Origin: a virus
Lineage: Duplodnaviria > Heunggongvirae > Uroviricota > Caudoviricetes
Virus record (IMG/VR): IMGVR_UViG_2703718868_000001
Direction: 5' to 3' (one strand)
DNA: 6,855 bases
In this document: piece after piece, positions 3,692 to 6,855 of the stretch
Numbering within the stretch: the first letter of the stretch is position 1
Layout of the letters: each line of letters opens with the position of its first letter
The notes under the pieces: generated by a model
Database searches by the model: none
Seen by the model: the letters and a program-made list of their open reading frames with translations, nothing else
What the model was told of the DNA's origin: nothing
Position numbers and translations under genes: made by a program

Positions 3692-3973
3692 TTACTGAGC
3701 ACCAATAATCCTGAAGATGTAATCCTTGAAGATGAGAGCCAGAGCGGCAGCAACAATAAACCACTGGAGTCGATCAAACTTGGTTTCCAGCTTGTCCAGG
3801 CGCTTATCAACCGATATTAGCTGGTTTTGCAAAGAATTAAAGCGACCATCAATCTCACGACGCAGGTTATCAACGCTTTCCTGTGTTGCCAGGTGTTGCA
3901 TGTTCTGCTGGCGATGGAGTAAAGCATTCAACACATCACTGGTGCTGAACTCAATTTTTTTGTCATCACTCAT
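3692..3973 (-). CDS. 93-aa coiled-coil protein with C-terminal transmembrane anchor (XhlA-like architecture; function unknown)
   Basis: ATG on the minus strand (plus 3971-3973) preceded by AGGAGG (complement of 3979-3984, 5-nt spacer); stop TAA (3692-3694). Product has heptad-like region NLRREIDGRFNSLQNQLISVDKRLDKLETKFDRL then hydrophobic tail WFIVAAALALIFKDYIFRIIG. It is the only convincing minus-strand gene in the window and has its own terminator. Confidence 0.7.
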   Translation of the reverse strand: MSDDKKIEFSTSDVLNALLHRQQNMQHLATQESVDNLRREIDGRFNSLQNQLISVDKRLDKLETKFDRLQWFIVAAALALIFKDYIFRIIGAQ

Positions 3974-4434: not shown

Positions 4435-5484
4435 GTGCGGGTATTACTTCGACCTGTTCTGGTACCGGAACTCGGGATGGTGCTCCTAAAGCCGGGCCGT
4501 GAATCAATGTCAGCATTCCATAACGGCAGAATATTGGTGGAACCGGAACCGAAAAACATGCGCGGTCTGCCGTCCGGAGTCGTTCCTGCCGTTCGACAGC
4601 CGCTGGCAGAGGATAAAACATTACTGCCATTTTTCAGCAACGAACGGGTGATTCGTGCTGCGGGTGGCGCTGGTGCACTGTCTGACTGGTTATTACGTCA
4701 CGTGAAATCCTGCCAGTGGTCACATGGCGATTATCATCACAGCGAAACTGTCATACATCGTTACGGTTCCGGCGCGATGGTGTTGTGCTGGCACTGCGAC
4801 AACCAGCTGCGCGACCAGACATCAGAATCACTCGATCAACTTGCTCAGCAGAATCTGGTTGCCTGGATGACTGACGTTATCCGTCACGCAATAAGCGGCA
4901 TGCAGGAGAGGGAGTTATCGCTGGCCGAATTATCCTGGTGGGCGGCCTGCAATCAGGTGGTGGATGCACTACCTGAGGCAGTAGCGCGTCGTTCGCTGGG
5001 ATTACCGGCGGAAAAAATCCGCTCCGTATACCGTGAGAGTGACATCGTACCGGGAGAACAGACAGCCATCAGCATACTGAAGCAGCGCACAAAAAATATT
5101 GCGCTGCCACTTCACGTCCACCAGCAACAAAATCCACCACAGAAAAAAACGGTTGTCAGTATCGCCGTTGATCCGGAGTCTCCTGAATCGTTCATGAGGC
5201 GGCCTAAACGTCGCCGTTGGGTTAATGAGAAATACACGCGCTGGGTAAAGACACAGCCGTGTGCGTGTTGTGGTAAGCCTGCTGACGATCCGCATCACCT
5301 GATTGGTCATGGTCAGGGGGGAATGGGGACAAAGGCCCACGATATTTTCACGCTACCGTTGTGCCGGGAGCACCACAACGAACTTCATGCAGACCCGCTG
5401 GAGTTTGAGAAAAAGTACGGCTCTCAGATTGAGTTAATTTTTCGTTTTCTTGATCACGCCTTTGCGACTGGCGTGCTCGGGTAA
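4435..5484 (+). CDS. DUF968-family protein with HNH-like Cys/His motifs (YdfU-like)
   Basis: GTG at 4435 with GGAGG at 4426-4430; 349 aa, the length I recall for E. coli K-12 YdfU. C-terminal motif CACCGKPADDPHHLIGHGQGG...LCREHHNELH is the DUF968/HNH-like signature; a second Cys/His cluster (CQWSHGDYHH...CWHCDNQ) lies near residue 95. Confidence 0.8.
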   Translation: MRVLLRPVLVPELGMVLLKPGRESMSAFHNGRILVEPEPKNMRGLPSGVVPAVRQPLAEDKTLLPFFSNERVIRAAGGAGALSDWLLRHVKSCQWSHGDYHHSETVIHRYGSGAMVLCWHCDNQLRDQTSESLDQLAQQNLVAWMTDVIRHAISGMQERELSLAELSWWAACNQVVDALPEAVARRSLGLPAEKIRSVYRESDIVPGEQTAISILKQRTKNIALPLHVHQQQNPPQKKTVVSIAVDPESPESFMRRPKRRRWVNEKYTRWVKTQPCACCGKPADDPHHLIGHGQGGMGTKAHDIFTLPLCREHHNELHADPLEFEKKYGSQIELIFRFLDHAFATGVLG

Positions 5485-5496
5485 AAGAGGTGACTG

Positions 5497-5856
5497 ATGC
5501 TCATAGATTTGGTTTTACCTTACCCGCCGACGGTGAACACTTACTGGCGACGCCGTGGCAGCACATATTTTGTCTCAAAAGCCGGGGAGCGTTATCGCCG
5601 GGCAGTGGCGCTTATTGTTCGCCAGCAGCGACTGAAATTAAGCCTGTCCGGACGGCTGGCAATAAAAATTATTGCAGAACCACCGGATAAGCGCCGCCGT
5701 GACCTGGACAATATTCTGAAAGCGCCGCTGGATGCGCTGACGCATGCGGGAGTGCTTATTGATGACGAGCAGTTTGATGAAATCAATATTGTACGTGGTC
5801 AGCTTGTTCCTGGTGGTCGGTTGGGTGTGAAGATTTACAAAATTGAGAGTGAGTGA
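5497..5856 (+). CDS. rusA: crossover junction endodeoxyribonuclease RusA (Holliday junction resolvase)
   Basis: ATG at 5497 with AAGAGG 5485-5490. Product aligns by eye with E. coli RusA: LPYPPTVNTYWR vs LPWPPSNNRYYR; PDKRRRDLDNILKAPLDALTHAG vs [30 protein letters not shown] vs KGGRLEL. 119 aa. Confidence 0.9.
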   Translation: MLIDLVLPYPPTVNTYWRRRGSTYFVSKAGERYRRAVALIVRQQRLKLSLSGRLAIKIIAEPPDKRRRDLDNILKAPLDALTHAGVLIDDEQFDEINIVRGQLVPGGRLGVKIYKIESE

Positions 5857-5864
5857 GCGTAAAT

Positions 5865-6395
5865 ATGATATATCCGGAAATTACAGGCAAAAGCGGCGAA
5901 CATTTACGCCTGAACACGCTGGAAGCAGTCTGGATCCAGGGGAAATTACGGATGTGGGGGCGGTGGTCGTATATCGGTGGGGGTAAATCCGGAAATATGT
6001 TTAACCGGTTACTGGTTTCGAAAAAGCTGACGAAAACAGCAGTTAATGAGGTTTTACGCAGAATGAAGAAATCCGGGCTGGATAAACCGGAACTTGAGGC
6101 ATTTTTTCGGGATATGACCAGAGGGAAGCAGAAGAGCTGGTTGTCACATTGTACAGACACAGAGGCGTTGATTATTGATCGCGTTATCAGTGAGGTGCTT
6201 GGGGAATATCCCGGGCTAATCAATATTCTCCGGCAAAGGTACGAAGGACGGGGAATGAGTAAGAGAAAAATGGCAGAATGTTTAAATCGTACTCACCCGG
6301 AATGGTGTTTCAGCACATGTGAGAAACGTATTGCAGGTTGGTTAGCCGTGGCTGAACACATGCTTTATGTACCTATGCACGATTCATTTCGATAA
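5865..6395 (+). CDS. late-gene antiterminator Q, QuuD (DLP12)-type, with an N-terminal extension
   Basis: Immediately downstream of rusA (the canonical nin-region position) and upstream of a strong intrinsic terminator. Several segments align by eye with my recollection of QuuD: LRMWGRWSY vs LERWGAWAA; CTDTEALII vs CDDDAMII; RIAGWLAVAEHML vs KAEGIIEGMLMAL. Start at ATG 5865; GTG 5853 overlapping the rusA stop is an alternative. Stop TAA 6393-6395. Confidence 0.65.
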   Translation: MIYPEITGKSGEHLRLNTLEAVWIQGKLRMWGRWSYIGGGKSGNMFNRLLVSKKLTKTAVNEVLRRMKKSGLDKPELEAFFRDMTRGKQKSWLSHCTDTEALIIDRVISEVLGEYPGLINILRQRYEGRGMSKRKMAECLNRTHPEWCFSTCEKRIAGWLAVAEHMLYVPMHDSFR

Positions 6396-6420
6396 AAAAA
6401 GCTTGCTTTTTTACGCAGAA

Positions 6421-6454
6421 ACAGCTTGAATTCCTGTAAGCTTCGCAAAGCTGT
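6421..6454 (+). promoter_or_regulatory. 7-bp inverted repeat (ACAGCTT ... AAGCTGT) with 20-nt spacer in the post-Q leader; candidate late-promoter / Q-utilisation element or RNA stem
   Basis: ACAGCTT at 6421-6427 is the exact reverse complement of AAGCTGT at 6448-6454; the spacer itself contains palindromes GAATTC and AAGCTT. It lies between the Q stop and the 6491-6514 terminator, where lambdoid phages carry pR' and qut. No convincing -35/-10 pair was found by eye. Confidence 0.3.
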
Positions 6455-6490
6455 ATCGCGAGGCGAAATGCAAGTTTTTTCGCACAAGGA

Positions 6491-6514
6491 AGCCACCGGA
6501 AGGTGGTTTTTTTT
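6491..6514 (+). terminator. rho-independent terminator (tR'-like)
   Basis: Stem CCACC (6493-6497) / GGTGG (6502-6506) with GGAA loop, extendable by G-U pairs, followed by T8 (6507-6514). Confidence 0.7.
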
Positions 6515-6637
6515 GTGTCCGTAATATACAGCAGCGCAATAAATTCGCTGGTGGTTATTAATACCGTTCTTTCAGCTTGCTGGCTTTTTCGACAAGAGTT
6601 ATTGGTGTGTCACGTTAACCGGAAAAAGGAAAAAGAC

Positions 6638-6835
6638 ATGCTGAAACAGCAGGATATGACCGAAACCGCCAGGGCAGTGTTTAATGAATTAAGCGTCACC
6701 GAACCGGCGACAGTCGGGGAGATTGCACAGAATACGTACCTTTCACGCGAACGCTGCCAGCTAATACTGACCCAGCTTGTTATGGCGGGTCTGGCAGACT
6801 ATCAGTTCGGTTGTTACAGACGCCTTCTGTCCTGA
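6638..6835 (+). CDS. small (65 aa) putative winged-helix DNA-binding protein (FaeA/PapI-like pattern), hypothetical
   Basis: ATG at 6638 with AAGGA at 6626-6630 (7-nt spacer); ORF-track frame 6503-6835 contains it. Product MLKQQDMTETARAVFNELSVTEPATVGEIAQNTYLSRERCQLILTQLVMAGLADYQFG has an xxEIAxxxxxxxxxxxxxLxxLxxAG pattern like small wHTH regulators. Stop TGA 6833-6835. Confidence 0.5.
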   Translation: MLKQQDMTETARAVFNELSVTEPATVGEIAQNTYLSRERCQLILTQLVMAGLADYQFGCYRRLLS

Positions 6836-6846
6836 AGGCTTTTTTA
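6822..6846 (+). terminator. rho-independent terminator after the small wHTH gene
   Basis: Stem GCCTTC (6822-6827) / GAAGGC (6834-6839) with 6-nt loop containing the stop codon, followed by TTTTTT (6840-6845). Confidence 0.65.
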
Positions 6847-6855
6847 TTTGTGGTA

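Follow-up and report, generated by a model that had tools for sequence, protein, structure and literature searches.

The stretch of DNA analysed here (the window; 6855 nt, IMG/VR record IMGVR_UViG_2703718868_000001, Caudoviricetes) covers the junction between the early-right and the late region of a lambdoid prophage. Close to its right-hand end, 3′ of a Q-type antiterminator gene and an intrinsic terminator, lies a gene for a 65-aa winged-helix protein (phrog_331; 6638-6835, plus strand), which is preceded by a promoter-like box and closed by a second intrinsic terminator. Comparison with related loci revealed that enterobacterial lambdoid prophages share a conserved two-gene cassette, in which this small gene comes first and a DNA methylase gene second. 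The window ends within the conserved intergenic leader that follows the small gene, of which it holds the first 9 bases (6847-6855, plus strand; TTGTGGTA). An original prediction, made from the sequence alone, had described a Q-type antiterminator, a 95-nt leader with a 7-bp inverted repeat, a strong intrinsic terminator, a 65-aa open reading frame (ORF) with its own ribosome binding site and a second intrinsic terminator. All of these elements were recovered in the present analysis and are described below with their coordinates.

The small gene and its product

The small gene extends from an ATG at 6638, which corrects the earlier position 6639, to a TGA stop codon at 6833-6835. A Shine-Dalgarno motif, AAGGA (6626-6630, plus strand), was read from the sequence 7 nt 5′ of the ATG, and an AAGG or AGG motif is kept at this place in the locus alignment. 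The ratio of nonsynonymous to synonymous substitution rates (dN/dS) amounts to about 0.08 across genera and mostly to 0.1-0.25 among the E. coli-type copies including that of the window; the ORF is a genuine gene under strong purifying selection. Conservation starts exactly at ATG 6638, more than 20 loci have no in-frame start upstream of it, and the N-terminal extensions proposed by gene callers, including the form that begins at GTG 6503, are unrelated between genera. The 110-aa protein that would result from GTG 6503 was rejected, its extension being unconserved and the GTG being located inside the hairpin of terminator 1, and the short ATG form, which had already been preferred in the original prediction, was retained.

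In a collection of 5.8 billion proteins 340 homologues of the small protein were present, and when 1.84 billion cluster representatives were searched exhaustively with a profile, only 83 clusters were found, so that the family has to be regarded as narrow. According to a genome scan the gene is confined essentially to Enterobacterales; roughly 40% of the complete E. coli genomes carry it, and a single genome can have as many as 8 matching places. As a sequence the gene is not new, and copies have been deposited widely under the names 'hypothetical' or 'TrmB family'. Two further copies carry other taxonomic labels: a locus labelled as a Bacillus sp. metagenome-assembled genome (L005) encodes a 100% identical protein and a locus labelled Chryseobacterium sp. 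(L014) an 81% identical one. Both are embedded in typical enterobacterial prophage sequence and are probably due to contamination or mis-binning in the source assemblies.

The AlphaFold2 model calculated from a 22-sequence alignment (pLDDT 90.5, pTM 0.76) shows the topology H1-b1-H2-H3-b2-b3, with helices at residues 2-16, 26-33 and 37-49, a strand at 24 and strands at 53-56 and 59-62. At the level of this model the protein was confirmed as a winged helix with a beta-hairpin wing, in agreement with the earlier description as similar to a winged helix-turn-helix (wHTH). Foldseek returned TM-scores of 0.81-0.83 to IclR N-terminal domains and further matches to MarR/OhrR proteins, the SelB winged helix, Zalpha and the dimerisation domains of S-adenosylmethionine (SAM)-dependent methyltransferases; the matches in PDB and BFVD were generic for winged helices, none with E<1e-3. 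Residues 1-63 of the small protein match positions 35-97 of the 111-position profile phrog_331 (E 4.4e-37, 127 bits), a family labelled 'unknown function', and the earlier statement that the function is undescribed therefore still applies.

None of the curated family thresholds in Pfam and NCBIfam was reached by the small protein. TrmB (PF01978) scored 19.2 bits (E 0.0011, cut-off 25.6), and the name 'TrmB family transcriptional regulator' assigned by the Prokaryotic Genome Annotation Pipeline (PGAP) is due to this sub-threshold match only; full-length TrmB has a C-terminal sugar-binding domain, and the small protein is without a second domain. Members of the MarR family comprise about 140 aa, with dimerisation helices that flank the wHTH. 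In the small protein these flanking helices are absent, and MarR_2 reached 16.1 bits against a cut-off of 27. For FaeA/PapI (PF04703, gathering score 20.7 bits) no match at E<=1 was obtained with the 65-aa protein. The FaeA/PapI-like character suggested in the original prediction was consequently not found in the profile searches. Moreover, the Pfam search yielded no HTH_3 or Xre profile match, the PDB sequence search nothing at E<0.2, and PADLOC just a 15-bit winged-helix match.

The conserved parts of the protein are the N-terminus (MLKQQDMT) and helix 3 (C-Q-L-I-L-T-Q-L-x-x-A-G-L), and the wing is variable. Due to the fact that RCQLILTQL was included as a search pattern in the locus scan, the invariance of this motif among the scanned loci is partly by construction; the N-terminus and helix 3 were also kept in the matches of an unbiased hidden Markov model (HMM) search performed without a word index. 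Within helix 3, Q41, T45 and Q46 are expected to be exposed, as judged from the sequence by analogy with typical winged-helix regulators and not computed from the AlphaFold2 model.

The promoter-like box upstream of the small gene (6577-6613, plus strand) consists of TTGCTG (6577-6582), a 17-nt spacer ending with AGAGT, TATTGG (6600-6605) and then GTGTGTCAC. Across loci the consensus reads TTGCTG, 17-nt spacer ending with AGAGT, TA(Y)NTG and GTRTGTCAC, and other genera have TATCTG or TACATG as the second hexamer. The alignment of 36 loci (12 genera) shows almost no change in the hexamers and no gaps in their spacing, while the spacer itself varies. Since RNAalifold predicted 0 consensus pairs for the box, it is read as a DNA-level element, and because the combination of fixed hexamers, fixed spacing and free spacer is the pattern of a promoter, the small gene probably has its own low-level promoter besides any Q-dependent read-through, as far as sequence conservation can indicate. 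With the conserved box located 3′ of terminator 1, expression of the small gene therefore need not depend on Q read-through only.

At its 3′-end the small gene runs into intrinsic terminator 2 (6822-6845, plus strand), a 6-bp hairpin followed by T6 that was matched in the terminator scan. The hairpin, GCCTTC-TGTCCT-GAAGGC (6822-6839), precedes the T-run at 6840-6845 and folds with -10.9 kcal/mol; the TGA stop codon is located within its loop and right arm, and the left arm is coding. In the Enterobacteriaceae the hairpin over the stop codon is kept by compensatory changes (for example GCCTTC/GAAGGC, GCCTCC/GGAGGC, CTCCGC/GCGGAG and GCTGCC/GGCAGT). It is absent in Proteus, Providencia and Plesiomonas, and only the E. 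coli clade and a few others have a strong T-run.

Linkage to a methylase and the RNA leader between the two genes

The gene neighbourhood was compared in 34 loci on contigs from one genome per species, which belong to Escherichia, Salmonella, Kluyvera, Citrobacter, Klebsiella, Enterobacter, Buttiauxella, Proteus, Providencia, Mangrovibacter, Mixta and Plesiomonas. A beta-class N6_N4 methyltransferase gene is located ~150 nt 3′ of the small gene in ~30 of the 32 informative loci, spread over 12 genera. The gene upstream of the small gene varies among the 34 loci and encodes a lambda-type Q, a Q21-type Q, a DUF1133-type Q or another protein. The same linkage was observed in all IMG/VR loci with enough upstream DNA (76 of 76), where the small gene is positioned ~153 nt upstream of the methylase, and the junction of small gene and methylase is present in 1917 of 5426 complete E. 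coli genomes. The methylase homologues among the matches listed were all at least 62% identical and enterobacterial. In relatives Q lies upstream of the small gene, and holin and lysozyme lie downstream of it; in phage phiP27 and in Stx2a phages Q and the small gene are followed, in this order, by a 352-aa DNA methylase, tRNAs and stx. This places the small gene beside the stx slot and not in it, contrary to the original prediction, which had assigned it the position of the Stx toxin genes.

A variant junction was found in 725 of the 5426 complete E. coli genomes, in which the small gene is followed by a 237-aa AraC-family gene (Pfam; phrog_1450) that, by literature context, probably belongs to the Psr/PatE group. 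The variant keeps only the first ~50 nt of the leader, and a TATAAT-bearing promoter-like stretch for the AraC gene comes next; the breakpoint between the methylase and the AraC arrangement (L003 ~10040 and L121 ~3540, compared with L120) directly follows the leader's first helix domain. Relatives that are 98.3-98.5% identical over Q and the small gene carry either the methylase or the AraC-type gene. In the window copy the T6 tail and Phe57 resemble a methylase-context copy, a resemblance that is not decisive for what follows position 6855. Other methylase copies are common in the genomes with the AraC variant. In a locus from a gut Enterobacteriaceae (L022, 3977-4300) the methylase is deleted, the leader breaks off after ~114 nt, and the first 13 codons of the small gene are missing together with the promoter box; this locus is a cassette decaying as a unit.

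The leader between the small gene and the methylase, which was previously unannotated, comprises ~140 nt to the methylase start codon in relatives and is highly conserved (6267-6416 in phiP27, L001). Its profile was found at full length in 116 loci, which are all of the methylase-context loci except two that are cut or truncated. Rfam contained no match for the methylase leader, and within the window it gave sub-threshold chance matches only (rpsB sRNA with 21 bits and STnc560 with 17 bits). The covariation analysis supported a structured RNA, with 94.7% of the cells paired and 11 pairs with double changes, a value as high being reached in 0 of 500 shuffles. Numbered by the columns of alignment A3, a long-range helix (108-117:177-187) takes up the bases that directly precede the methylase AUG. 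An alternative helix (91-100:112-121) covaries as well, with CG, AU, UA and UG at 93:119 and UA and CG at 96:116, and is mutually exclusive both with 108-117:177-187 and with the helix 51-56:94-99. The leader thus looks like a translational switch or a riboswitch-like element.

In order to identify the methylase, the phiP27 enzyme was compared with SUPREM, to which it is 71% identical (the SUPREM sequence originated from a PDF supplement and is slightly garbled); of the 11 SUPREM point-mutant positions comparable in register, it carries the substituted residue at 10. In PMC11551740, SUPREM is described as an ancestral reconstruction of the M.EcoGII family and its point mutants as targeting positions which separate the M.EcoGII and SUPREM clades. 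Phage 1720a-02, for which a very similar methylase is reported in passages of Murray et al. 2018 (PMC5778455), has the pair of small gene and methylase after its Q genes. Judged by these comparisons, the partner of the small gene in most relatives is an M.EcoGII-family enzyme, one of the non-specific adenine methyltransferases of the M.EcoGI/M.EcoGII kind. According to the same passages of PMC5778455, M.EcoGII methylates adenines in any context, is borne by a prophage, is silent in the lysogen and is harmful to the cell if expressed constitutively. The passages of the M.EcoGII literature at hand report the silence in the lysogen, not the mode of regulation, and those of PMC5778455 and PMC11551740 make no mention of an upstream small gene or a leader RNA. 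As far as the searched literature shows, the obligate pairing with an M.EcoGII-type enzyme, the promoter box and the switch-like leader are undescribed.

The Q module and the remaining genes of the window

The gene for the Q-type antiterminator (DUF1133 family, with a Q21-like domain at the C-terminus, according to Pfam and PHROG) occupies positions 5853 or 5865 to 6395 on the plus strand. Its product matches DUF1133 with 367 bits over residues 5-180 and Phage_antitermQ (PF06530) with 35.5 bits (cut-off 26), and is assigned to PHROG 753, 'anti-termination protein Q-like'. Of the two possible starts, GTG 5853 (4-nt overlap with the RusA stop) and ATG 5865, the latter is likely the true one, because both the DUF1133 profile and the 176-aa form that PGAP annotates in relatives begin there.

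The Q-module leader follows at 6396-6490 (plus strand, 95 nt). It holds the 7-bp inverted repeat, ACAGCTT (6421-6427) and AAGCTGT (6448-6454), a stretch which on its own folds as shuffled sequences do (z -0.03). The leader together with terminator 1 (6396-6520) folds with -45.3 kcal/mol (z -4.0), and this unusual folding of the whole leader results from the pairing of an 11-nt A-run located directly after the Q stop (AAAAAGCTTGC, 6396-6406) with a complementary T-run just 5′ of terminator 1 (GCAAGTTTTTT, 6470-6480), by which the inverted repeat is enclosed. Positions 6396-6480 may be the body of a short pR′-tR′ RNA, which we take to be comparable to lambda 6S RNA or StxS. A putative pR′ and a Q-loading site are presumably contained in the Q-module leader; they were not located, the consensus scan having detected no sigma-70 site of at least 9/12 in 5800-6855. 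The best pR′ candidate by eye consists of TTGCTT (6403-6408), 17 nt and TTGAAT, and is without the -11 A.

Intrinsic terminator 1, the candidate tR′, is located at 6492-6514 on the plus strand (6491-6514 in the original prediction). It comprises a GC-rich hairpin with a GGAA loop, GCCACC-GGAA-GGTGGT (6492-6507), followed by T8 (6507-6514), and folds with -20.1 kcal/mol (z -4.8). The consensus scan listed its hairpin on the minus strand only; our guess for the plus-strand miss is that the stem extension takes in the T-run. A hairpin with a T-run is found at this position in essentially all 36 aligned loci, with a stem that differs per upstream module, and the two hairpins flanking the small gene (terminators 1 and 2) recur in relatives with compensatory changes. 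Megablast similarity to phages with other Q types begins only at ~6531-6547, just 3′ of terminator 1. A mosaic joint is therefore located here: Q, its leader and terminator 1 make up the module on one side, and the small gene is part of the module on the other.

The genes further upstream encode, in window order, a DUF1627 protein (14-775), DUF4406, Ead/Ea22-like and DUF551 proteins, a DUF968 protein (4435-5484) and RusA (5497-5856). The DUF1627 protein has two weak winged-helix/HTH matches at residues ~4-50 and 85-133, one of which is a sub-threshold FaeA match of 16.4 bits; it is a second, larger winged-helix protein in the window, without assigned function. A 93-aa ORF on the minus strand (3692-3973), situated among plus-strand genes, has a hydrophobic C-terminus and no Pfam match. 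At the place matching this ORF a relative (L003) carries a minus-strand ParD/ParE toxin-antitoxin pair.

Role of the small protein and comparison with known systems

The small gene is the fixed upstream partner of a toxic methylase in nearly all relatives, and its product therefore probably controls or assists this methylase and does not act on host adhesins. A nucleic-acid-binding regulator was ranked first because helix 3 has an invariant polar face, because the cis elements are invariant as well, and because controller proteins of restriction-modification (R-M) systems offer an analogy. It is accordingly quite possible, if some way from assured, that the small protein is a nucleic-acid-binding control or accessory component of the methylase cassette which provides silencing and timing of the methylase. 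The cassette is located behind the terminator of whichever Q module precedes it and comprises, in this order, the weak promoter-like box, the small gene, the stop-codon hairpin or terminator and the structured RNA leader. The gene's own promoter would sustain a small supply of the protein, and read-through of terminator 1 by Q-modified RNA polymerase a large one. The helix-3 surface of the protein (Q41, T45 and Q46) would bind a conserved cis element: the box, the hairpin domain at the 5′ side of the leader, or the two together, each of which always travels with the small gene. In this way the toxic methylase would be kept silent in the lysogen and its production would be timed in late development. 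In the leader, one helix would cover the bases 5′ of the methylase AUG and the mutually exclusive helix would free them. The logic would be that of R-M controller proteins carried out by a different fold, and the enterohaemorrhagic E. coli (EHEC) variant, in which an AraC-type regulator replaced the methylase and the small gene was retained, would be a derived form.

Several observations weigh against such a regulator. The net charge within the family ranges from -5 to +3 with a median of about -1, and the wing is acidic in Proteus and Providencia; a near-neutral to acidic charge is unusual for a nucleic-acid binder and therefore favours a protein-protein role. The box is a poor sigma-70 match (~6/12, no T at -7), and no dyad operator kept across genera was seen by eye in the box alignment. 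A few loci (L021 and L030) keep the methylase with a damaged small gene. The small gene is intact and under purifying selection in the 725 AraC-variant genomes, which may mean that it has a role beyond a methylase linked in cis. Finally, passages of PMC5778455 describe M.EcoGII as fully active alone in vitro, so that the small protein is not needed for catalysis. These last two points count against every model centred on the methylase.

Alternatively, the small protein might bind the methylase itself, either as an antitoxin-like inhibitor or as a targeting or specificity subunit, and the enzyme would then behave differently in vivo. We regard this as rather unlikely, yet it draws on the strict synteny, on the charge of the family with its acidic wing in some clades, and on the presence of methyltransferase winged-helix dimerisation domains among the top Foldseek matches, although the fold is generic. 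The toxicity of the enzyme when expressed alone, as described in passages of PMC5778455, and the precedent of the non-homologous PNB-2/MT-A70 complex of phage PA8 (PMC10810198) point in the same direction. On the other hand, a regulated leader of 150 nt lies between the two genes together with a hairpin or terminator, an arrangement that suggests unequal expression and not a stoichiometric complex. The small gene also persists where the AraC-type gene replaced the methylase, and in passages of PMC11551740 M.EcoGII is a homodimer that requires no partner, as concluded from an AlphaFold model and gel filtration. A more general formulation, which is tentative, is that the small protein and the switch-like leader together form a control device for M.EcoGII-type enzymes, the protein being either an RNA-binding selector of the leader fold or a partner that restrains or redirects the enzyme. 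If the latter were true, the 'non-specificity' of M.EcoGII would be the property of an enzyme studied without its natural partner.

The role put forward in the original prediction, a Q-dependent late cargo regulator of the FaeA/PapI type which reprograms the host at induction, for example by adhesin phase variation, or acts as a general late regulator, appears improbable. The position directly 3′ of Q and a strong terminator stands, the interval from Q to the lysis genes is a known site of moron insertion (Tree et al. 2014, PMC4104026), the winged-helix fold and size are comparable to those of PapI/FaeA, and in EHEC prophages the small gene persists beside an AraC-type host regulator. The description as free-standing cargo does not stand, as the methylase partner is constant and it is the Q module that is swapped freely. 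The gene is linked to the methylase and not to host-interaction genes, it has its own promoter-like box, there is no FaeA/PapI profile match, and a host-reprogramming factor that appears only minutes before lysis would have to take effect within a short time. No sign of adhesin phase variation was seen. A fimbrial, Lrp or GATC context was not found.

No better placed is the view that the ORF acts in cis as a translated leader, so that its translation up to the stop codon in the hairpin would modulate termination and leader folding, with the protein being secondary. It would account for the stop codon inside the terminator-2 hairpin with its coding left arm, for the mutually exclusive leader helices and for the helix 51-56:94-99, whose first strand begins ~13 nt after the stop in Proteus and Providencia. 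In the E. coli clade, however, this helix begins ~24 nt after the stop, which is too far for direct occlusion by the ribosome, and the dN/dS of 0.08, the confident fold of the domain and its invariant surface helix show that the protein sequence itself is selected. Given the stop codon within the terminator hairpin, a cis role may thus add a layer, not the whole story. That the ORF arose by chance or has a wrong start, the real product being the 110-aa form from GTG 6503 or no protein at all, can be dismissed, for the many automatic gene calls of 72-110 aa and the 34 extra N-terminal positions of the PHROG profile are outweighed by the unrelated extensions, the ATG-bounded conservation, the loci without upstream start and the purifying selection described above.

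With a regulator of the methylase as the preferred reading, the small gene, the box and the leader offer a testable answer to the question of how a prophage silences a toxic methylase and releases the enzyme late. M.EcoGII-type methylase is a widely used biotechnology enzyme, and the pairing makes it testable whether a partner shapes its behaviour in vivo. The small gene is abundant, lies in many Stx phages directly upstream of the block of methylase, tRNAs and stx, and is without assigned function; even if the link to the methylase were wrong, it would still be among the most abundant uncharacterised winged-helix genes of enterobacterial prophages.

Controller (C) proteins of R-M systems such as C.PvuII and C.AhdI are Xre-type five-helix HTH dimers that bind a palindromic C-box. 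The cassette resembles them in that a gene for a small protein of DNA-binding type is located immediately upstream, and in the same orientation, of a gene harmful if expressed early, in the presumed role in timing or limiting, and in having its own promoter region. In contrast, the small protein is a winged helix by model and has no Xre profile match, the controlled gene would be an orphan methylase and not an endonuclease, and a terminator and an RNA leader separate the two genes. As to a C-box, a conserved box is present at 6577-6613, in which no dyad kept across genera was seen by eye.

A second counterpart is PNB-2 of phage PA8 (Gong, Chakraborty, Koudelka 2023), a small winged-helix protein which forms a 1:1 complex with the methylase M.EcoPA8orf6770P and sets its substrate preference (PMC10810198). 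Here too, a small predicted winged-helix gene is located directly upstream of a methyltransferase gene in an Stx-type lambdoid phage. PNB-2 differs in its length of 143 aa and in its methylase, which is of the MT-A70 type with 208 aa; moreover, the PNB-2 pair, which was placed in PA8 by means of a published terminator sequence, lies in the early-left region near int (L004), unlike the post-Q place of the small gene. Homology between the two proteins was considered and rejected (BLASTP E 0.21 over 18 residues; phrog_1680 versus phrog_331).

PapI/FaeA proteins (PF04703) share with the small protein a single winged-helix domain of ~65-77 residues. They are set apart by the missing profile match, by their fimbrial operon, Lrp and Dam-GATC context as opposed to the lambdoid late region, and by the helix-3 motif CQLILTQ, which is specific to the small-protein family. 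Like lambdoid morons downstream of pR′ (Juhala et al. 2000; Tree et al. 2014), the small gene is situated between Q and the lysis genes, with a promoter-like element and a terminator at its borders, and the late-leader region after Q is a moron insertion site (PMC4104026). The small gene differs from morons in being constant and methylase-linked across genera, while the Q module and genes further downstream (stx, TerB and NanS-p) vary. The nearest functional analogues of the small protein are thus the R-M controller proteins and PNB-2, membership in either group being excluded by fold or by sequence.

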